A stretch of 60,721 nucleotides of DNA. It comes from Chloroflexota bacterium. GTDB taxonomy: Bacteria; Chloroflexota; Limnocylindria; Limnocylindrales; CSP1-4. Numbering within the stretch: position 1 is the first letter of the stretch; each line of letters starts with the position of its first letter. Below are positions 4,400-13,813 of the stretch, in pieces. The position numbers were made by a program, and so were the translations under genes. The notes under the pieces were generated by a model. The model ran no database searches, had not been told where the DNA came from, and saw only the letters and a program-made list of their open reading frames with translations. The stretch covers positions 1 to 60,721 of the forward strand of contig JANPDJ010000001.1 in assembly GCA_031431395.1 (NCBI GenBank). Direction: 5' to 3'.

Positions 4400-5311
4400 A
4401 TGAGCCCGGCACGTGAGCCGCTTCCGCCACGCCCCCGGCCCGGCGAATCCGCATCCGGTGCCGGCCCGGTTCGCGGGTCGCCGGTGGATCGCCCTCCGCT
4501 TCCAACAGATCCCGCAGGGCTCCCGCCGCTCCCGGAGCGCTTCCACGACGTCCTGCGGGACGGCCTGGCAACCATGGGACTTGACCTGTCGCGTACCCAA
4601 CTCCACGCCCTCGACGCGTATGTCCGGCTGCTGCTGGCATGGACAGATGCGATCAACCTGACCGCGATCCGCGAACCGGCGGCTGTCGCGCGCGATCATC
4701 TACTTGACAGCCTCTCGGCGGTGGCGCTGCTGCGTGAAACGGGCGCCCGCCGGATCCTGGATCTCGGCAGCGGCGGCGGCCTGCCCGGCATCCCCATCGG
4801 GATTGCGCTCCCCGCGGCTCACGTGCTTCTCGTGGAATCGATCGCCAAGAAGGCAGCGTTCCTGCGGACGGCCGTCCGCGCGATTGGTGCGGATCGCCGC
4901 ATCGAGGTGGCCGCGGAGCGCGCCGAGGCCCTTGCCTCGCCGGGTCGTGGTCGCGATTCGTTCGACGCCGTCACCGTTCGCGGCGTCGCCGGGCTCCCCG
5001 AGTTGATCGAACTGTCGTTCCCGCTCCTGCGGATCGGCGGCCAGGTCATCGCGTGGAAGCGCGAGCCGCAGCAGGCCGACATCGATGCCGGCAGGGAGCC
5101 CCTCCATCGGGAACTGGCGGCGGGACGGAACGCGGCGCGGGTGCTCGGCGGAGAGCTCGATATTGTCCCGGTCACAGTCGAGGGCCTCGAGCACCACCGG
5201 CTGGTCGTCGTCGCGAAGCGGCGTGCGACGCCGGTCCGGTTTCCCCGCTCCCCCGGGGAGCGGCGTGCAGAGCCCCTTGGGGCCCTGCTCCACGGGGCTC
5301 TGCACGGGTAG
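4400..5311 (+). CDS. rsmG: 16S rRNA (guanine527-N7)-methyltransferase RsmG/GidB
   Basis: LLLAWTDAINLTAIREPAAVARDHLLDS and the SAM motif ILDLGSGGGLPGIPIGI. Start set at an internal ATG of ORF 4298..5311 and is uncertain; there is a Pro-rich N-terminal extension. Confidence 0.8.
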   Translation: MSPAREPLPPRPRPGESASGAGPVRGSPVDRPPLPTDPAGLPPLPERFHDVLRDGLATMGLDLSRTQLHALDAYVRLLLAWTDAINLTAIREPAAVARDHLLDSLSAVALLRETGARRILDLGSGGGLPGIPIGIALPAAHVLLVESIAKKAAFLRTAVRAIGADRRIEVAAERAEALASPGRGRDSFDAVTVRGVAGLPELIELSFPLLRIGGQVIAWKREPQQADIDAGREPLHRELAAGRNAARVLGGELDIVPVTVEGLEHHRLVVVAKRRATPVRFPRSPGERRAEPLGALLHGALHG

Positions 5312-5383
5312 GGCCCATCCGTGCTCGCGCGGGCCCACGACCCACCGGCAGCCATCGCGGTGGCCGCGCTACCCTGACCACAC

Positions 5384-6106
5384 ATGCGAATTCTCGTGGT
5401 CTCCGACGTTCATGCGAACCTGCGCGCCCTGGACGCCGTCATCGACGCGGCCGGCAGCGTGGACGCGCTGTGGCACCTGGGCGACGTCGTGGGGTATGGG
5501 CCGGATCCGGACGCCGTGGTCGGGCGGTTGCGCGCGCTCGGCGCCGTCGGCGTTTGCGGCAACCACGACGCGGCAGCGCTGGGCGGCCGGGAGATCGAGC
5601 AGTTCAACGTTGATGCGCGCCGCGCCATGGAGTGGACGAAGGGCACGATCTCGTCCCAGACGCAGGAATGGCTGGCGGCACAGCCGCTCCGGCGAGAGGA
5701 CGGCCCGTACAGCCTGGTCCACGGGAGCCCGCGCGATCCGATCTGGGAGTACATCACCTCCGCGCCTGTCGCGCGAGCCAACCTCGCGATCCTCGGCACC
5801 TCCATTGGGCTCTTCGGCCACACGCACCTCCCGATCGTCTACCGCGACGAGCACGGGATGATCGAGACCATCTCGCCGTCGCACGGCTCGACGATCCGCC
5901 TGGACGATCGCCGGACCCTGCTGAACCCGGGCAGCGTTGGCCAGCCTCGCGACGGCGATCGGCGGGCGGCCTTTTTCGTGCTGGACACGGAACGCAGCGA
6001 GGGGCGTTGGGGGCGCGTGGCGTACGACATCGCCGGCACGCAGGCGGACATGCGCGCGGCAAAGCTGCCGGAGCGGCTGATCGCCCGGCTGGACCATGGG
6101 CTCTGA
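5384..6106 (+). CDS. Metallophosphoesterase (YfcE/MJ0936-like)
   Basis: MRILVVSDVHAN, GDVVGYGPDP, CGNHD and GHTH are the calcineurin-like phosphoesterase signature. Confidence 0.85.
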   Translation: MRILVVSDVHANLRALDAVIDAAGSVDALWHLGDVVGYGPDPDAVVGRLRALGAVGVCGNHDAAALGGREIEQFNVDARRAMEWTKGTISSQTQEWLAAQPLRREDGPYSLVHGSPRDPIWEYITSAPVARANLAILGTSIGLFGHTHLPIVYRDEHGMIETISPSHGSTIRLDDRRTLLNPGSVGQPRDGDRRAAFFVLDTERSEGRWGRVAYDIAGTQADMRAAKLPERLIARLDHGL

Positions 6107-6227
6107 TCGCCCGGCGCCGCGGCTTGGCCGCGTGGTAGCGTCCGCGGCGATGTTCATGTGCCTACGCGGATACGACATGGATGCGCCCGCTGCAGATCGC
6201 GCTGCCCCGAACGTCGGCTGCTGACCC

Positions 6228-8282
6228 GTGCCACGACCGGATGACGCCACGACCGGCCCGGAGGCGGGACCGGGCGGACACGATGCCAACGCCGCCCTGA
6301 AGGGCCGCAAGCTCGGTGACCGCCGCGTACGAGTGGACCGGCCACATAGCCCGTACTTCCGCTACACCCGTGCCGGACTGGAGGCACGCGAGGCGGCCAG
6401 CATCCCCAACACGCCCGCAGGGCGACTCCAGGCCCGGATCCGGCGAACGTTCATCGGCCGGCCGCTGGCGTCGGAAGAGGAGATCGGCGAGCGGCTCTCG
6501 AAGAAGAAGGCCCTGGCCATCTTCAGTTCGGATGCGATCTCGTCGTCGGCGTACGCAACCGAGGAAATCCTGCGGGTCCTGATCCTCGCGGGAGCGGCCG
6601 CGCTCGCCTTCGGGCTCGAGATCAGCATCGCGATTGCCCTGCTCCTGGCGGTCGTCGCGATCAGCTACCGCCAGGTCTGCCGCTCGTACCCCAACGGCGG
6701 CGGCTCCTACTCCGTGTCGCGGGCCAATTTCGGACGGCTCGCGTCCCTGGTCGCCGCGTCGGCCCTGCTGATCGACTACGTGATGACCGTGGCCGTCTCC
6801 ACGTCGTCGGCCGTGGAGCAGATCACGTCCGCCGTCCCGGAGCTGCTCGACGAACGCGTGTTGATCGGCGTGATCGCGATCGTGCTGATCACCCTCGGCA
6901 ACCTCCGGGGTCTGCGCGAGTCGGGCAACATCTTCGCCGTCCCGACGTACCTGTTTCTCGGTTCGGCGCTGCTGATGATCGGGATCGGCGTGTTCCGGAT
7001 CGTCGTCCTTGGCGAGGGAAGCTCGTATGCGGACGGCCTTGCGGCGCAGGCGCCGAAGACGGCCGAGTCGGTCGGCGTGCTGCTCCTCCTGCGGGCCTTT
7101 GCGGCAGGCTCCGTCGCCTTGACGGGGACGGAGGCGATCGCCACCGGCGTTCAGGCGTTCAAGCCGCCCGAATCCAAGAACGCGTCGCAGACGCTGGCGA
7201 TCATGGCCGTCCTCCTGGGGGTGCTGTTCATCGGCATCTCGTTCCTGGCGGTGAATTTCGCGATCGAACCGATCACGTCGCCGGCGACAAAGACGGTGAT
7301 CTCACAGGTGGCAGGTCGGGTCTACGGCGACGGAACGATCCCGTTCTTCCTGTTCCAGGCGTTCACGGCACTGCTCCTGTTCCTTGCCGCGAACACGTCC
7401 TTCGCCGCGTTCCCGCGCCTCGCCGCCATCCTGGCTGAGGACGGGTTCATGCCGCGGCAGTTCAGCTTCCGCGGCGACCGCCTGGCGTTCTCGTGGGGCA
7501 TCGTCGTGCTGGGCCTGGTCGCGGCGTCGCTGGTGGTGATCTTCCACGGCGAGACGCATCTGCTGATCCCGCTGTATGCCATCGGCGTGTTCATCGACTT
7601 CACGATCAGCCAGGCCGGCATGATCCGGCACTGGCTCACGACCCGTGAGCCGGGCTGGCGCCGCCGGCTGGCGATCAACGCGACCGGCTGTGTTCTGACG
7701 TTCACGGTCGGCGTCATCGTCACCATCGCGAAGGCACCGCAGTCGCTCATTGTGCTGATCCTCATCCCGGTACTGGTCAGCCTGATGCTGTTCATCCGGC
7801 GCCAGTACGACGCCCACGAGCGCGAGTTGTTCGTACCTGAACACGCGCTGATCGCCGGCCCGCATCGCGAGCAGCGCGTCGTGATCCCGGTGAACGGCAT
7901 CAACCGCGCCGTCGTCCAAGCCGTCAACTTCGGGCGCACGCTCGCCAAGGATGTCCGCGCCGTCTATGTCACGGACGACACGGAGGAGGCCGACCGGCTG
8001 CGCAGCCGGTGGGAACGCCAGTTGCCGGGGGTGGTGCTGGTCATCGTCGAATCCCCGTACCGCGCCCTCATCGAACCCGTGATCGCCTATCTCGATGTCC
8101 TGGAGAACACGTGGCCGACGGATAAGGAAGCCGCGCTGACGATCGTGGTCCTGCCGGAATACGTGGCGCGGCACTGGTGGGAGCGCCTGCTGTACAACCA
8201 GTCGGCCATGCGACTCAAGGCGGCGCTGGTCGGCCGCGAGCGAACGGTGATTGCCGACGTGCCGTATCGTCGGGAGCGATGA
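6228..8282 (+). CDS. kimA: KimA-like K+/H+ symporter (APC superfamily permease with C-terminal cytoplasmic domain), paralog 1
   Basis: Motif-by-motif resemblance to B. subtilis KimA as I recall it: LSKKKALAIFSSDAISSSAYATEEIL, SYRQVCRSYPNGGGSY, LIDYVMTVAVS, NLRGLRESGNIF, ANTSFAAFPRL, RGDRLAFSWG, LIPLYAIGVF. C-terminal SPYRALIEP and LYNQSA. Confidence 0.7.
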   Translation: MPRPDDATTGPEAGPGGHDANAALKGRKLGDRRVRVDRPHSPYFRYTRAGLEAREAASIPNTPAGRLQARIRRTFIGRPLASEEEIGERLSKKKALAIFSSDAISSSAYATEEILRVLILAGAAALAFGLEISIAIALLLAVVAISYRQVCRSYPNGGGSYSVSRANFGRLASLVAASALLIDYVMTVAVSTSSAVEQITSAVPELLDERVLIGVIAIVLITLGNLRGLRESGNIFAVPTYLFLGSALLMIGIGVFRIVVLGEGSSYADGLAAQAPKTAESVGVLLLLRAFAAGSVALTGTEAIATGVQAFKPPESKNASQTLAIMAVLLGVLFIGISFLAVNFAIEPITSPATKTVISQVAGRVYGDGTIPFFLFQAFTALLLFLAANTSFAAFPRLAAILAEDGFMPRQFSFRGDRLAFSWGIVVLGLVAASLVVIFHGETHLLIPLYAIGVFIDFTISQAGMIRHWLTTREPGWRRRLAINATGCVLTFTVGVIVTIAKAPQSLIVLILIPVLVSLMLFIRRQYDAHERELFVPEHALIAGPHREQRVVIPVNGINRAVVQAVNFGRTLAKDVRAVYVTDDTEEADRLRSRWERQLPGVVLVIVESPYRALIEPVIAYLDVLENTWPTDKEAALTIVVLPEYVARHWWERLLYNQSAMRLKAALVGRERTVIADVPYRRER

Positions 8283-8347
8283 CAGCGCCCAACGCGGGCC
8301 GTCGCCGGGCCGCGCCCGCGGCCAGCCGATATCCAACCTGGTGATGG

Positions 8348-10429
8348 ATGCCACGAACCCCGGAAGACCCTGACGGCGCGCCCGACGCCGATGGTCACCA
8401 GCTCAAGGGGCGCAAGCCCGGCGACCGGAGGGTGCGGATCGAGCGCCCGCACGCACCATTCTTCCGCTACATGGGACCAGGCCAACTGGTCGCAAAGCCT
8501 GCCGCGAGCCGCCCCACGACCGGCCTCGGCCTGGCATTCGCCCGAGTCAGGGCGGCCACGCTGGGACGGCCCCTGGCGAACGAAGAGGAGATCGGCGAGC
8601 GCCTGACGAAGAAGAAGGCGCTGGCGATCTTCAGCTCCGACGCGATCTCGTCCTCCGCCTACGCCACGGAGGAGATCCTGCGCGTCCTGATCCTGGCCGG
8701 GGCCGGGGCGCTGATGGTCTCCATCCACGTCGCGGTCGCGATCGCCATCCTGCTGGCCGTTGTGTCCATCTCGTACCGGCAGGTGTGCCGGGCGTACCCC
8801 GGCGGCGGTGGCGCCTACGTGGTGGCGCGGGAGAACCTGGCCCCGATCTTCGGGCTGATCGCGGCCGCCGCTCTGCTCATCGACTACGTGATGACAGTCG
8901 CCGTGTCCACCTCGTCGGCGCTCGACCAGATCTTCTCGATCGTCCCGGACCTGTCCGATCTGCGCGTCGAGATCGGCCTCCTCTCGATCGGACTCGTCAT
9001 GGTCGCGAACCTGCGCGGGCTGCGTGAGTCCGGCAACATCTTCGCGGTTCCCACGTACCTGTTCATCGGCCTGGCCCTGAGCATCGTCGCATCCGGTATC
9101 TGGCACATCGCGACGGGCAGCGCGCACCCGCTGCCGCGCCAGCCAAATGCGGAGCCACTGGGAACCCAGGCGATCGGCATCGTCCTCATCCTCAAGGCCT
9201 TCGCCAGCGGGTCCGTCGCTCTCACCGGCGTCGAGGCGATCGCCAACGGTGTCCCGGCGTTCAAGCCGCCTGAAGCAAGGAACGCCGCGAACACGATGAC
9301 CGCGATGGCGGTGCTCCTCGCGATCCTCTTCATCGGGATCACGGTGGTCGCTCACGCGTACGACGTTGTGCCATCGGTGGGCGGCGCGCCGTCCGTGGTC
9401 GCGCTCGTGGCGACCACGGCGTTCGGCACGGGCCCGCTCTACTACCTGTTCCAGGTCGCGACGGCACTGATCCTGTTCCTGGCCGCCAACACCAGCTTCA
9501 ACGCGTTCCCGCGCCTCGCGGCGATCCTGGCCGAAGACGGCTACATGCCCCGCCAGTTCAGCTTCCGGGGCGACCGCCTGGCGTACTCGTACGGGATCAT
9601 GGCGCTGGCCGGGATCGCCGCGGTGCTGCTGGTGCTGTTCGGTGGCGTGACGACGCTGCTCATCCCGCTGTACTCGGTGGGCGTGTTCGTCTGTTTCACC
9701 CTGTCGCAGGTCGGCATGGTCCGCCACTGGCGGACGGTTCGCGGGCCGGGGTGGTCGTGGCGGGCGATCGTGAACGGATCCGGCGCGGTGATGACCTTCA
9801 TCGTGCTCGGCATCGTTGTCACAGAGAAGTTCAGCGGCGGGGCGTACCTGGTCGTGATCCTCATCCCGACGATCGTGGGCGTGATGCTCTTCATCAGTCG
9901 CCAGTACCGCTCGACGGGGACGCAGCTCGCGATCCGGCCCGATTTCATTGCGGCTCCCACTAATCGGACGCATCGGGCGATCGTGCCGGTGCCGGGCATC
10001 AACCGGGCGGTGATCCAGGCCGTCAACGTGGCCCGTTCCATCAGCCCGGACACGCTTGCCGTCTTCATCGCGCTGGAGGCCGACGAGGCCGCGATTCTCC
10101 GACGCCAGTGGGAGCGCCAGGTGCCCGGCGTGCCCCTGGTCGTCGTGGAGTCGCCGTACCGCGCCCTGACCGGGCCCTTGCTGGCGTACCTGGATGTCCT
10201 CGATCACGCGCGCAAGGAAGGCCAGCAGGCGCCGATCACCTTCGTTGTGATCCCGGAGTTCGTGGCTCGGACATGGTGGGAGCGGATCCTGTACAACCAG
10301 TCGGTTCGCCGGTTGCGCAGCGCGCTCATCGGCCGGCCGCACACGGTCGTGGTGAACGTCCCCTACCGGCGCGAGGAACCGGAACCGGCCAGTCACGAGC
10401 CGGGACAGCCGAGGACGCACGGGCGGTGA
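8348..10429 (+). CDS. kimA: KimA-like K+/H+ symporter, paralog 2 (tandem duplicate)
   Basis: Same motif set as paralog 1 (LTKKKALAIFSSDAISSSAYATEEIL, SYRQVCRAYPGGGGAY, ANTSFNAFPRL, SPYRALTGP, LYNQSV). The two copies are clearly diverged rather than recent. Confidence 0.7.
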   Translation: MPRTPEDPDGAPDADGHQLKGRKPGDRRVRIERPHAPFFRYMGPGQLVAKPAASRPTTGLGLAFARVRAATLGRPLANEEEIGERLTKKKALAIFSSDAISSSAYATEEILRVLILAGAGALMVSIHVAVAIAILLAVVSISYRQVCRAYPGGGGAYVVARENLAPIFGLIAAAALLIDYVMTVAVSTSSALDQIFSIVPDLSDLRVEIGLLSIGLVMVANLRGLRESGNIFAVPTYLFIGLALSIVASGIWHIATGSAHPLPRQPNAEPLGTQAIGIVLILKAFASGSVALTGVEAIANGVPAFKPPEARNAANTMTAMAVLLAILFIGITVVAHAYDVVPSVGGAPSVVALVATTAFGTGPLYYLFQVATALILFLAANTSFNAFPRLAAILAEDGYMPRQFSFRGDRLAYSYGIMALAGIAAVLLVLFGGVTTLLIPLYSVGVFVCFTLSQVGMVRHWRTVRGPGWSWRAIVNGSGAVMTFIVLGIVVTEKFSGGAYLVVILIPTIVGVMLFISRQYRSTGTQLAIRPDFIAAPTNRTHRAIVPVPGINRAVIQAVNVARSISPDTLAVFIALEADEAAILRRQWERQVPGVPLVVVESPYRALTGPLLAYLDVLDHARKEGQQAPITFVVIPEFVARTWWERILYNQSVRRLRSALIGRPHTVVVNVPYRREEPEPASHEPGQPRTHGR

Positions 10430-10556
10430 TCCCGGTCGGCCCGCCCTGATGACAAGCCGTTGGAGCAGAGTGGTATCGTGACCGCGAATTGTCGAGCCGG
10501 CGCGGGCCTGATCCGGACCCGCCCACAGACCTCACTGCATCAATGGGAGCTGCCGC

Positions 10557-11015
10557 TTGCCCACCCTTCCTGAGCCGGCGTTTCGACGCGCCGTGCTGGG
10601 CCTGACCGGCGGCCCGGGCGACGAGCGGATGGTCCGCATCGCCTGCCAGTTGGCGAAGCCCCACAGGAGCGAGATCATCGGGGTCCATGTCGTCGAGATC
10701 GATTGGACGTTGCCGCTCGACGCGGACATCGCCGGCCGCAGCGAGGATGTCCAGCGGGTGCTCGACGTGGCCGAAGCGGCTGCCGAGGACACCGGCTACG
10801 CGCTGACGCCGGTGCTGCTCCAGGCGCGCGACGTCGGCGCGGCCCTCGTCGACGAGGCCAGCGAGCGCGGCGCCGACCTGTTGATGCTGAGCCTGGCCTA
10901 CCGGACGAGGTTCGGCGGCGACTTCGCGATCGGCCAGACGATTCCGTACGTGCTCAAGAACGCGCCCTGCGCCGTGTGGGTGGTGCGCGAGCCAATGCCC
11001 GGAGGCCAGCCATGA
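10557..11015 (+). CDS. Universal stress protein (UspA family)
   Basis: IIGVHVVEI..., ERGADLLMLSLAYRTRFGG..IGQTIPYVLKNAPCAVWVV. TTG start; stop overlaps the next start (ATGA). Confidence 0.75.
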   Translation: MPTLPEPAFRRAVLGLTGGPGDERMVRIACQLAKPHRSEIIGVHVVEIDWTLPLDADIAGRSEDVQRVLDVAEAAAEDTGYALTPVLLQARDVGAALVDEASERGADLLMLSLAYRTRFGGDFAIGQTIPYVLKNAPCAVWVVREPMPGGQP

Positions 11016-11560
11016 ACGTCGTGATCGTCGGATGCGGCCGTGTGGGTGCCCTGGTGGCGGCAACGATGGACGCGGCGGGTCACGCCGTGACGATCCTCGA
11101 CATTTCCACCCTTGCGTTCGACCGCCTCCCGGATACCTTCAAGGGCACGGCGATCCGCGGCAACGGCACCGATGAGGACATCCTGCGGCGGGCGGGCACC
11201 CAGGACGTGGACCTGTTCCTGGCCCTGACGGAGGGCGACAACCGCAACGTGATGTCCGCACAGATCGCGGCAGAGGTCTTCGACGCCAAGCGCGTCATCG
11301 CGAAGATCAACGATCCGCTTCGGGCGGAAGCGTATGCAGACCTCGGGATCGGGACGATCTGCCGGACGACGATCCTGACGGACGCGATCCTCGGGTATGT
11401 CGGCGTGCCCGGCACAGGCTCCACTGGTGTTCGGGCTCCGGCAGGCGCCCACCCGGGTGCGGACCATCCACCGGTCCTGGGAGCAGTGAGTGCAGCAGCA
11501 GTCAACCCAGCCGCGGGCGCGGCGGCCCCGAACGGCCGCGCCGTAGCTTCGGAGGCCTGA
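11012..11560 (+). CDS. trkA: TrkA/CeoB-like RCK_N (NAD-binding) protein with disordered tail, no RCK_C
   Basis: MNVVIVGCGRVGALVA Rossmann motif, then LTEGDNRNVMSAQIA. Ends in a Gly/Ala/Pro-rich tail. Confidence 0.8.
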   Translation: MNVVIVGCGRVGALVAATMDAAGHAVTILDISTLAFDRLPDTFKGTAIRGNGTDEDILRRAGTQDVDLFLALTEGDNRNVMSAQIAAEVFDAKRVIAKINDPLRAEAYADLGIGTICRTTILTDAILGYVGVPGTGSTGVRAPAGAHPGADHPPVLGAVSAAAVNPAAGAAAPNGRAVASEA

Positions 11561-11562
11561 TC

Positions 11563-12240
11563 GTGTTCGTCCTGGTTGTCGGCGGCGGCAAGGTGGGCTA
11601 CTACCTGACGCGCGAGTTGATCCAGTCCAACCACGAAGTGGTCCTCATGGAGAAGGATCGCGCCCGGGCCGGCCAGATCGCCGATGAGATCGGGTCCGTG
11701 GTGATCGCCCGCGACGGGTGCGAGGGCAAGTACCTCGCGGAGGCGGGTGCCAACCGGGCGGACATCGTCGCGGCGGTCACCGGTGACGACGAGGACAACC
11801 TCGTCATCTGCCAGATGGCGAAGCACCACTTCGCGGTGCCACGCACGATTGCACGCGTCAACAATCCGGCCAACGAGGTGCTCTTCAAGCACCTTGGCGT
11901 GGACGAACTGATCTCGCCGACGCGCATGGTCCTCGCGTCCATCGAGCAGGACATCCCCGTCAACGAGTTGCTGCACCTCGCGGCCCTGGGCAGCGGCGAA
12001 CTGGAGCTGATCGAGGCGCACCTTGCGCCGGGCTCACCGGCGATCGGCCTCGCGACCGGTGACCTCGATATCCCCGATGGGTGCACCCTTTTCGCGGTGA
12101 TCCGCAATGGGCGCGCGACACGCCTGGCGCCGGACACGATCCTGCTGGAGGGCGACAAGGTCCTGGCCATCGGCCAGAGCGAATGCAAGGTCGCGCTTCA
12201 CGCCCAGTTCATCGGGACGTCCGAGCCCCTCATCCCCTGA
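11563..12240 (+). CDS. trkA: TrkA/CeoC-like RCK_N + RCK_C potassium-transport regulatory protein
   Basis: VLVVGGGKVGYYLTREL, VTGDDEDNLVICQMAK. The C-terminal RCK_C-like part includes ELIEAHLAPGSPAIG and LLEGDKVLAIG. Confidence 0.85.
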   Translation: MFVLVVGGGKVGYYLTRELIQSNHEVVLMEKDRARAGQIADEIGSVVIARDGCEGKYLAEAGANRADIVAAVTGDDEDNLVICQMAKHHFAVPRTIARVNNPANEVLFKHLGVDELISPTRMVLASIEQDIPVNELLHLAALGSGELELIEAHLAPGSPAIGLATGDLDIPDGCTLFAVIRNGRATRLAPDTILLEGDKVLAIGQSECKVALHAQFIGTSEPLIP

Positions 12241-13813
12241 CGGCAGCGCCCGCCCGCTTGCGAACGAGGGCTCGCCACGTCATCGCCCAGCGCGCAGGAT
12301 CGTCGGCGGCTTCTTCGTCCAGGATTGCCACCGGGCCGCGGTGCGGTGCCGACCGAACCTCTGCCGGCGCCGTCCGTGCTTCGTCGGCGATGGCCGCAAG
12401 GATGGCTGCCAGCTCGTCCAGGTCGTCTTTCGAGACCATCTCCGTGGGTTCCAGGGTCATCGGCTCCGGCACCAGCATGGGATGGTGGCTCGTGTAGTAG
12501 GGCTGGAGGCCGTAGTCCGTCGTGCGGCGCACGATGTCGTCCGTGGTGACGCCGGTCTCGGCGGTCAATTGCGCCCACGACCAGCGGACCTGGTCGAGGC
12601 GGGGCCCGCTCCCCTCGTACGGCATGGTGAGACCGGGGACCTGGGCGAGGAGGTGCACGAGGTAGTTGTTGTTGAGCACCGCCGTCTCGGCGACCGTTCG
12701 CAACCCGTCCGCTCCCAGCGCAAGGAGCCACGCGTACGCCCGGACCACCACCTGGAAGTTGCCGGCCCACGCGCGAACCCGCCCGACGGACTGCGGCCGG
12801 TCGCGGTCAAGGATGTAGCCGTCGCCGGCGAAGCGCACGACGGGCGACGGCAGGAACGGCGCCAGGTCCGCACGAACACCAACGGCCGACGCGCCGGGGC
12901 CGACCGAGTTGTGGGGCGCCCCGAATGTCTTGTGGAGGTTGAACTGGCCCAGGTCGAAGCCCGCGTCCGCGGCCCGCGCGATGCCCAGCAGCGGGTTGCC
13001 GTTCGCCTGGTCGTAGGCGCACAGCCCCCCGGCCTCGTGGACGAGCCGGACGAACTCCCCGACGTGGGGGTTGAAGATGCCCGTGTCCTCGGGGTTCGTG
13101 AGCATCAGCCCGGCGGTCCGCGGCGAAATCGCGGCGCGTAGCGCATCCACGTCCGGGAATCCGCGTTCACCGGGCATCAGCGAGATGACGCGGAACCCGG
13201 CGGTTGCGGCGCCGGCGGCGTTGGCCGGATGCGAGAAGGTCGTCGTGATGATCTCGTCGCGGCGGTGGCCTTCCCCCCGGGCCTCGTGCCAGGCGCGGAT
13301 GATGAGCGCGCTGGTGTAGATGCCCTGGCTGCCGCCGCCACCCTGGAAGCTGAACGCGCCGAAGCCCGACACGGCCTTCAGCAGCTGCTCGCAGCGCCAG
13401 CTGATCTCCAGCAACCCCTGGACGCTCTCGGGATCCTGGTCCGGGTGCAGGTCGAGAAGCTTGGGGCTGCGGGCGATCAGCTCGCCGACGAGCGGGCTGT
13501 ACTTCATCGTGCAGGTGCCCAGGGTGTCCGCTACGAGGTGGGCGCCCTGGCTCATCTGCGACAACCGCAGGAAATGGCGCAGGACGAGCGGTTGGGCCAG
13601 CTCCGGGAGCCGGGGCGCGACTGCACGCCGGAGCGCGGCCGGGATCGCCGCAAGCGCAGCGTCCTGCCCGGCGGCGACCTCGGGATCCAGGGGCGGCAGG
13701 ATCAGGCCGCGCTGGCCGGGCGTGCCGAGTTCCGTGACGAGCGGCTCGTTCCAGCGGACGCCCTGGTAGTGGCGGCCGGCGGGCTCCCGACCCGGCGCTC
13801 CGGTGGGCGTCAC
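12230..13813 (-). CDS. gcvPB: Glycine dehydrogenase (decarboxylating) subunit 2-like PLP enzyme
   Basis: Full-length GcvPB-like. PLP-lysine motif FNLHKTFGAPHNSVGPG (canonical form is NLHKTF..PHGGGGPG). GTG start overlaps the gcvPA stop. Confidence 0.8.
   Translation of the reverse strand: MTPTGAPGREPAGRHYQGVRWNEPLVTELGTPGQRGLILPPLDPEVAAGQDAALAAIPAALRRAVAPRLPELAQPLVLRHFLRLSQMSQGAHLVADTLGTCTMKYSPLVGELIARSPKLLDLHPDQDPESVQGLLEISWRCEQLLKAVSGFGAFSFQGGGGSQGIYTSALIIRAWHEARGEGHRRDEIITTTFSHPANAAGAATAGFRVISLMPGERGFPDVDALRAAISPRTAGLMLTNPEDTGIFNPHVGEFVRLVHEAGGLCAYDQANGNPLLGIARAADAGFDLGQFNLHKTFGAPHNSVGPGASAVGVRADLAPFLPSPVVRFAGDGYILDRDRPQSVGRVRAWAGNFQVVVRAYAWLLALGADGLRTVAETAVLNNNYLVHLLAQVPGLTMPYEGSGPRLDQVRWSWAQLTAETGVTTDDIVRRTTDYGLQPYYTSHHPMLVPEPMTLEPTEMVSKDDLDELAAILAAIADEARTAPAEVRSAPHRGPVAILDEEAADDPARWAMTWRALVRKRAGAAVRG

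Follow-up and report, generated by a model that had tools for sequence, protein, structure and literature searches.

KimA of Bacillus subtilis (PDB 6S3K, 8B70 and 8B71) is a potassium importer whose K+ ligands are D36, Y43, T230 and Y377 (PMC10284832) and whose tunnel and coupling residues are D117, T121, S125 and E233 (PMC6994465); neither of these papers describes RCK partners for it. RCK proteins of the two-subunit type are represented by TM1088A and TM1088B of Thermotoga maritima, which are encoded by overlapping genes, crystallise as an A4B4 octameric gating ring and work with the TrkH protein TM1089 (PMC4380455). A tandem pair of half-size TrkA proteins also makes up the CeoB/CeoC 'Trk system' of Mycobacterium tuberculosis (PMC6375644, PMC8358298, PMC13163235), and KhtT-KhtU and CpeA-CpeB (PMC7132281, PMC11067040) are precedents for a separate RCK protein that controls a secondary transporter instead of a channel. 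Here we describe a putative potassium-uptake gene row, kimA1-kimA2-usp-trkA1-trkA2, that brings such parts together at positions 6228-12240 (+ strand) of a 60,721-nt stretch of DNA (contig JANPDJ010000001.1, assembly GCA_031431395.1; the window) from a soil or freshwater Chloroflexota bacterium (genome G000, G+C about 70%, yet no actinobacterium). From its conserved gene neighbourhood we consider it plausible, at roughly even chances, that TrkA1, TrkA2 and the universal stress protein (USP) regulate KimA directly.

Five plus-strand open reading frames (ORFs) fill the segment, in this order:

6228..8282, + strand: kimA1, 684 aa, KimA-type K+/H+ symporter paralogue in which a basic N-terminal extension of about 65 aa precedes the LeuT-fold membrane domain and the C-terminal cytoplasmic domain
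8348..10429, + strand: kimA2, 693 aa, second KimA-type K+/H+ symporter paralogue
10557..11015, + strand: usp, 152 aa, TTG start, stand-alone universal stress protein
11012..11560, + strand: trkA1, 182 aa, short RCK subunit with RCK_N only and a low-complexity tail (paralogue p1)
11563..12240, + strand: trkA2, 225 aa, long RCK subunit with RCK_N and RCK_C (paralogue p2)

The successive intergenic gaps from kimA1 to trkA2 are 65, 127, -4 and 2 nt, the overlap being the ATGA shared by the usp stop and the trkA1 start, and GGAGG or GGGAG lies 8-9 nt 5' of usp, trkA1 and trkA2; these three genes are translationally coupled. A 285-aa ORF opening at 10703 is an overlong frame, and the real start of trkA1 is the ATG at 11012. 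Pfam domains were AA_permease_2 in both permeases, Usp in the usp product, TrkA_N alone in TrkA1 and TrkA_N plus TrkA_C in TrkA2. An earlier note on this DNA had described a USP gene and two RCK genes on the strand of the permeases, with overlapping or near-abutting junctions; the gaps of -4 and 2 nt confirm this layout, and both RCK genes are present, although the first of them lacks an RCK_C domain.

In phmmer searches, the sole PDB sequence matched by KimA1 and KimA2 was B. subtilis KimA (6s3k, 8b70, 8b71). The alignments to 6s3k covered residues 70-681 of KimA1 on 4-604 (E 7e-137) and residues 67-674 of KimA2 on 5-604 (E 4e-143), with the C-terminal cytoplasmic domain, which is swapped in the Bacillus protein, included in both. 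In a three-way alignment, KimA1 and KimA2 were 39.7% and 44.0% identical to B. subtilis KimA and 58.8% identical to each other, and the four K+ ligands and the four tunnel and coupling residues were identical in both. By homology and residue conservation, the two proteins belong to the KimA branch within the KUP family and are predicted to import K+ by proton coupling. The earlier note had likewise assigned both permeases, C-terminal domain included, to the KimA (YdaO) type, and its idea withstood the check for amino-acid carriers in their place. In a KimA tree the two fell into sister clades, each covering several genera.

Most of the c-di-AMP (cyclic diadenosine monophosphate) pocket is also kept in KimA1 and KimA2 (R337, L461, P479, N580, Q581 and S582), with H579 changed to Tyr, V457 to His or Thr, and V506 present as Val or Ile. 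The genome also encodes a membrane-anchored CdaA-like diadenylate cyclase (DAC, contig C100), and from the mostly conserved pocket and this cyclase gene both importers are probably still directly inhibitable by c-di-AMP. Apart from the substitutions at H579 and V457, the locus differs from that of B. subtilis in its two tandem paralogues, in their basic N-terminal extensions, in a gene row shared with usp and RCK genes, and in lacking an upstream ydaO-type riboswitch: at the gathering threshold we found neither the ydaO c-di-AMP riboswitch nor any other Rfam family in the window, and upstream of kimA1 there was no relevant Rfam element even at E<=1.

The N-terminal extensions of KimA1 (6228-6430) and KimA2 (8348-8550) follow the approximate pattern G-(R/K)-x-P-G-D-(R/K)-x-V-R...F-R...G-x-L-x-A-T. 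This extension marks a large KimA subfamily found in Chloroflexota, Dormibacterota and some other lineages, and it is missing from Bacillus KimA and from the KimA of a streamlined Limnocylindrus-like family. We considered it (GRKPGDRRVR...FRY) as a docking site for TrkA and rejected this, there being no correlation with adjacency: adjacent TrkA pairs accompanied 17 extension-bearing and 14 extension-less KimAs, and 19 extension-bearing KimAs had no adjacent pair. The extension is a subfamily trait. Some long KimA homologues have extra domains at the other end, such as DUF4118 in P0235, a family known from the membrane part of KdpD, and an OB-fold in P0242.

TrkA1 carries TrkA_N at residues 3-116 and no TrkA_C, and its last approximately 50 residues are rich in Ala, Gly and Pro and not conserved, the corresponding proteins of relatives being 135-200 aa long. 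Among the Thermotoga subunits, TrkA1 paired best with TM1088A (E 1e-20) and TrkA2, along its entire length, with TM1088B (E 4e-29), as reciprocal best matches. Vibrio TrkA was likewise matched by both proteins, and TrkA structures were retrieved at E 1e-22 (4j9u, with TrkA1) and E 6e-41 (4g65, with TrkA2). The nucleotide-binding GxGxxG motif reads GCGRVG in TrkA1, followed by ILD after beta-2 with the acidic D30, and GGGKVG in TrkA2, followed by LME, again with an acidic residue, after beta-2. Judged from these matches, TrkA1 and TrkA2 are orthologues of the two-subunit TrkA TM1088A/B, and by this homology they may assemble into an A4B4 octameric ring (PDB 3L4B). As in Thermotoga (PMC4380455), a short RCK_N-only subunit precedes a long RCK_N-RCK_C subunit in abutting, translationally coupled genes; unlike there, the partner TrkH went undetected in the genome itself and in nearly the whole family, kimA genes precede the pair, and usp is joined at its 5' end.

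When the RCK_N domains of 95 TrkA-like proteins, M. tuberculosis sequences not included, were placed in a tree, a clade of first genes (p1, SH-aLRT 96), containing TrkA1, separated from a clade of second genes (p2, SH-aLRT 85), containing TrkA2. Each clade holds sequences from Anaerolineae, Actinomycetota and other Chloroflexota, the window genes among them, which points to an old origin of the pair and a fixed gene order; because window genes and actinobacterial pairs occupy the same two clades, TrkA1 and TrkA2 are also orthologous to the actinobacterial (CeoB/CeoC-type) pair. At 135-200 aa, most Chloroflexota p1 proteins have no room for an RCK_C domain. The c-di-AMP motif of RCK_C domains of the KtrA/KtrC/CpeA type, (I/L)(I/L)x2DxRx5N(I/L)(I/L) (PMC7132281), was absent from TrkA1 and TrkA2 with both strict and loose patterns. 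The earlier note had drawn on c-di-AMP binding by RCK_C domains, an argument that finds no support in a TrkA1 without RCK_C and a TrkA2 without the published motif. In this respect the window also departs from KhtT-KhtU and CpeA-CpeB, in which RCK_C binds c-di-AMP and the transporter belongs to CPA2 and not to the LeuT/APC fold.

The third cytoplasmic component matched Pfam PF00582 (E 1e-14), and its AlphaFold2 (AF2) model (pLDDT 81.7) resembled USPs most closely (TM-scores 0.6-0.8); the best PDB matches included the USP domain of KdpD (7ji4) and TeaD (3hgm), which the title of its PDB entry gives as the TeaABC transporter's universal stress protein. Orthologues in nine relatives were 59-68% identical. 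The motif that marks ATP-binding USPs as a subclass, G-2x-G-9x-G(S/T), was not found by regular expression in the window protein or the nine orthologues, and the c-di-AMP motif of KdpD was absent from the window protein. In comparison with TeaD and the KdpD domain, the window USP has neither motif, and it is coupled to RCK genes instead of a TRAP system or a kinase. A relationship of the USP to the KimA cytoplasmic domain as paralogues was not supported (hhalign probability 19% over 34 columns), and KimA did not occur among the 50 best structural matches to the modelled USP.

The genome contains no recognisable alternative membrane partner of the Trk type. No match to TrkH/KtrB (PF02386) was obtained in the whole assembly (3.22 Mb, 375 contigs, 92.9% complete), although the same hidden Markov model (HMM) detected TrkH/KtrB in 11 of 14 control genomes. 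Kup, KdpA and a third KimA were not found in the assembly either, which leaves KimA1 and KimA2, on sequence criteria, as the only recognisable active K+ uptake systems. The earlier statement that no TrkH/KtrB accompanies the TrkA pair therefore extends from the locus to the whole assembly and to 22 of the 24 genomes of the family, and the check it proposed, for a trkH/ktrB elsewhere that explains the pair, left its idea standing.

The arrangement is strongly conserved among relatives. KimA occurs in 23 of the 24 family genomes. In the same 23, an orthologue of TrkA2 (59-82% identical) is encoded 1-2 kb downstream of a kimA gene on one and the same contig, with a short trkA1 in between, so that the order kimA-usp-trkA1-trkA2 is kept in 23 of the 23 genomes with the pair. 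The 22 family genomes in which TrkH was not found include assemblies of 1, 5, 7, 8, 9 and 10 contigs. The two family genomes with TrkH carry a separate TrkA directly beside it, and this TrkA branches as an outgroup in the TrkA tree.

We then surveyed KimA across species-representative genomes, collecting 80 KimA loci from many phyla, in 21 of which a tandem TrkA pair directly abuts KimA. Three layouts were seen: kimA-usp-trkA1-trkA2 in Limnocylindria-like Chloroflexota; kimA-trkA-trkA, with both TrkA proteins full length and no USP, in Anaerolineae; and a TrkA pair divergent from kimA in Actinomycetota. None of the Firmicutes, Cyanobacteria or Nitrospirota loci among the 80 had the pair next to KimA. 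In the KimA tree the three adjacency sets formed separate clades, with non-adjacent clades in between. TrkH was present in 1 of 20 genomes with KimA-TrkA adjacency, compared with 11 of 20 KimA genomes without it, counts of adjacency and TrkH being descriptive only, as related genomes are not independent. At one KimA locus (L028, G017:C2, 5634-8735), a third KimA paralogue lineage lies divergently beside a gene for an MthK-like channel (Ion_trans_2, RCK_N and RCK_C) and not beside a TrkA pair.

Starting from the pair, we examined 71 Actinomycetota genomes, M. tuberculosis not among them, and found a close p2 (CeoC-type) orthologue in 25. The corresponding pairs lay within about 3 kb of KimA in 21 cases, at contig edges in two and away from KimA in two (21 of 23 assessable pairs adjacent). 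KimA was present in all 25 pair-bearing genomes, as against 11 of the 46 others, whereas 20 of the 25 lacked TrkH, which in no case lay near the pair. TrkA matches of lower identity in this phylum adjoined TrkH and represent canonical KtrA/TrkA. The adjacency of a permease to ceoB/ceoC that the earlier note had given for mycobacteria thus holds among the actinobacteria of this sample. In contrast to the window, both actinobacterial subunits measure about 225 aa, which corresponds in size to RCK_N plus RCK_C; in most cases the pair diverges from kimA, and a neighbouring USP gene was not detected.

These observations suggest how the row might work, although the mechanism that we outline is drawn from conserved gene order. 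The usp-trkA1-trkA2 genes would encode a cytoplasmic nucleotide-sensing module, whose TrkA1/TrkA2 ring would ancestrally have served TrkH. In a TrkH-less lineage, the ring would most likely have been kept through acting on KimA, adjusting K+ uptake to the ATP/ADP or NAD(H) state, while the USP would supply an additional stress signal. We put forward tentatively, at slightly less than an even chance, that a ring of the TM1088A/B (CeoB/CeoC) type switched partner from the TrkH channel to the LeuT-fold KimA, and that the USP was added as a third subunit in Chloroflexota.

Several results weigh against such direct regulation of KimA, among them those from a sample of 101 Chloroflexota genomes, 82 of which carry a TrkA2-like gene. 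KimA is present in 39 of these 82, adjacent to the pair in 14 and unlinked in 25; another 20 have TrkH without KimA, adjacent to the pair in 8; and the remaining 23 have neither. Moreover, KimA occurs in 16 of the 19 pair-less genomes, so that there is no positive co-occurrence of KimA and the pair at the genome level in this phylum; the co-occurrence of kimA and trkA that the earlier note wished to see checked is therefore found in Actinomycetota but not in Chloroflexota. An exclusive pairing with KimA is further contradicted by a Dehalococcoidia-like locus, L135 (G101:C1:129000-146000), where the row trkA (454 aa, N-C-N-C)-trkH-usp-trkA1-trkA2 occupies positions 8026-12422 (- strand), its genes spaced by a few to about 80 nt. 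The 16 genomes (1.0-1.4 Mb) of the streamlined sister family have one KimA each, with neither a TrkA pair nor TrkH, no KimA-RCK fusion of the Rosetta-stone kind was found among 10 long KimA representatives, and the RCK-less CPA2 antiporter of the genome (contig C336) could be the target of the module instead. Finally, the documented partner of the TM1088-type ring is TrkH (PMC4380455), and B. subtilis KimA works without RCK proteins (PMC6994465, PMC10284832).

The neighbours of the pair in the 20 Chloroflexota loci where it is not next to KimA were varied. A USP gene precedes it in 9 of them, and an AI-2E transporter gene (PF01594) lies within 4 kb in 7 (L119-L125, from three families, with neither KimA nor TrkH), directly beside trkA1-trkA2 in L124 and L125; the AI-2E protein may be another partner, or the two may merely share synteny. 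In one of the 20 loci (L132, G177:C2, 9685-11229, - strand), the gene immediately upstream of usp-trkA1-trkA2, sharing its strand, encodes an ordinary APC amino-acid permease of 514 aa that matches AA_permease and AA_permease_2 and lacks the C-terminal domain of KimA. At L135, TrkH is accompanied by a full-length TrkA as well as by the two-subunit module, with the same spacing in G113, G168, G142 and G088; this double TrkA arrangement recalls the KtrA/KtrC hierarchy in Bacillus. A canonical Kup as the hidden partner was discarded, Kup being present in only 5 of the 101 genomes and, of the 23 that lack both KimA and TrkH, in 2. Overall, usp-trkA1-trkA2 is not specific to KimA: it behaves as a portable accessory of K+ uptake, which is found behind TrkAH or KimA and can stand alone.

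Outside the five genes, the window and the remaining contigs show the following features:

window, 5384-6106: metallophosphoesterase gene, upstream of kimA1
window, 12230-13813, - strand: gcvPB, GcvPB-type glycine dehydrogenase subunit, converging on trkA2 with an 11-nt overlap at the trkA2 end
C62:21554-22687, - strand: MthK-like channel with fused RCK and a filter-like TVGYK in place of TVGYG
C29:19474-20661, + strand: membrane protein with fused RCK_N, its membrane part without a recognisable K+ filter
contig C247: second Ion_trans_2 channel
contig C2: NhaP-like antiporter
contig C336: CPA2 antiporter without an RCK domain of its own

A promoter and terminator scan of positions 5000-12800 returned zero promoter-like sites and a single terminator-like site, within kimA1, which is below the shuffle expectation and uninformative.

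The C336 antiporter figures in the principal alternative to regulation of KimA, namely that the module, though expressed together with KimA, acts on another membrane protein, either this antiporter, in the manner of KhtT-KhtU and CpeA-CpeB, or an AI-2E transporter, and stands beside kimA only through a shared K+-homeostasis regulon. RCK proteins are known regulators of CPA2 antiporters (PMC7132281), and the 23 of 82 Chloroflexota genomes with the pair and neither KimA nor TrkH, the seven AI-2E loci among such genomes, and the independence of KimA from RCK partners in Bacillus and the streamlined sister family all speak for it. However, no CPA2 or AI-2E gene is near the pair in the window or its family, the synteny with KimA is kept in 23 of 23 family genomes and 21 of 23 actinobacterial pairs, and the actinobacterial pair was never seen without KimA; we thus regard this alternative as unlikely, while the most serious of those considered. 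Somewhat less probable still is that the module is a soluble nucleotide or cation sensor for other processes, enzymes or transcription for instance, without a dedicated transporter, and owes its place beside K+ importers to history. Such a role would agree with the 25 of 39 Chloroflexota genomes in which module and KimA are unlinked and with several loci that show no transporter neighbour (for example L116-L118, L126-L128 and L133-L134), but all characterised homologues (TM1088A/B, TrkA, KtrA) are gating subunits of transporters (PMC4380455) and, when linked, the order is K+ importer-(usp)-trkA1-trkA2, for KimA and TrkAH alike.

An ordinary Trk system, with trkH merely missing from an incomplete assembly, would fit a ring type that works with TrkH in Thermotoga (PMC4380455) and a metagenome-assembled genome that is 92.9% complete in 375 contigs. 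We consider it very improbable, given that 22 of 24 family genomes, among them assemblies in 1 to 10 contigs, yielded no TrkH, and neither did 19 of 20 other genomes with KimA-TrkA adjacency, that the HMM succeeded in 11 of 14 controls, and that the two TrkH-bearing relatives carry a separate, dedicated TrkA beside TrkH. Regulation of KimA by the RCK pair, as the earlier note proposed, is partly supported, by linkage in three lineages and by the assignment of the permeases to KimA in a genome without TrkH/KtrB; it is weakened by a module that also follows trkA-trkH, is often unlinked from KimA, and has neither partner in 23 of 82 genomes.

All the parts of the row belong to known families, and their combination is not described in the searchable literature: we found no publication proposing a KimA-TrkA partnership, in a search that left most subscription-journal papers outside. 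The CeoBC papers searched name no membrane subunit and make no mention of TrkH, TrkG, Rv2690 or KimA, and CeoB, TrkH and membrane were mentioned together only in unrelated work. By gene numbering, Rv2690c abuts ceoB (Rv2691). A Streptomyces review reports two KimA-like genes and no TrkH/KtrB, and never mentions TrkA. To our knowledge, no RCK-regulated transporter of the APC superfamily has been described.

If TrkA1 and TrkA2 do act on KimA, this would thus be the first such transporter, and RCK control would reach as far as the APC/LeuT fold. Such an action would also explain why a TrkA pair is conserved in many TrkH-less Actinomycetota and Chloroflexota, and would name the membrane component of the mycobacterial 'Trk' system, CeoBC, giving its potassium phenotypes a concrete transporter.

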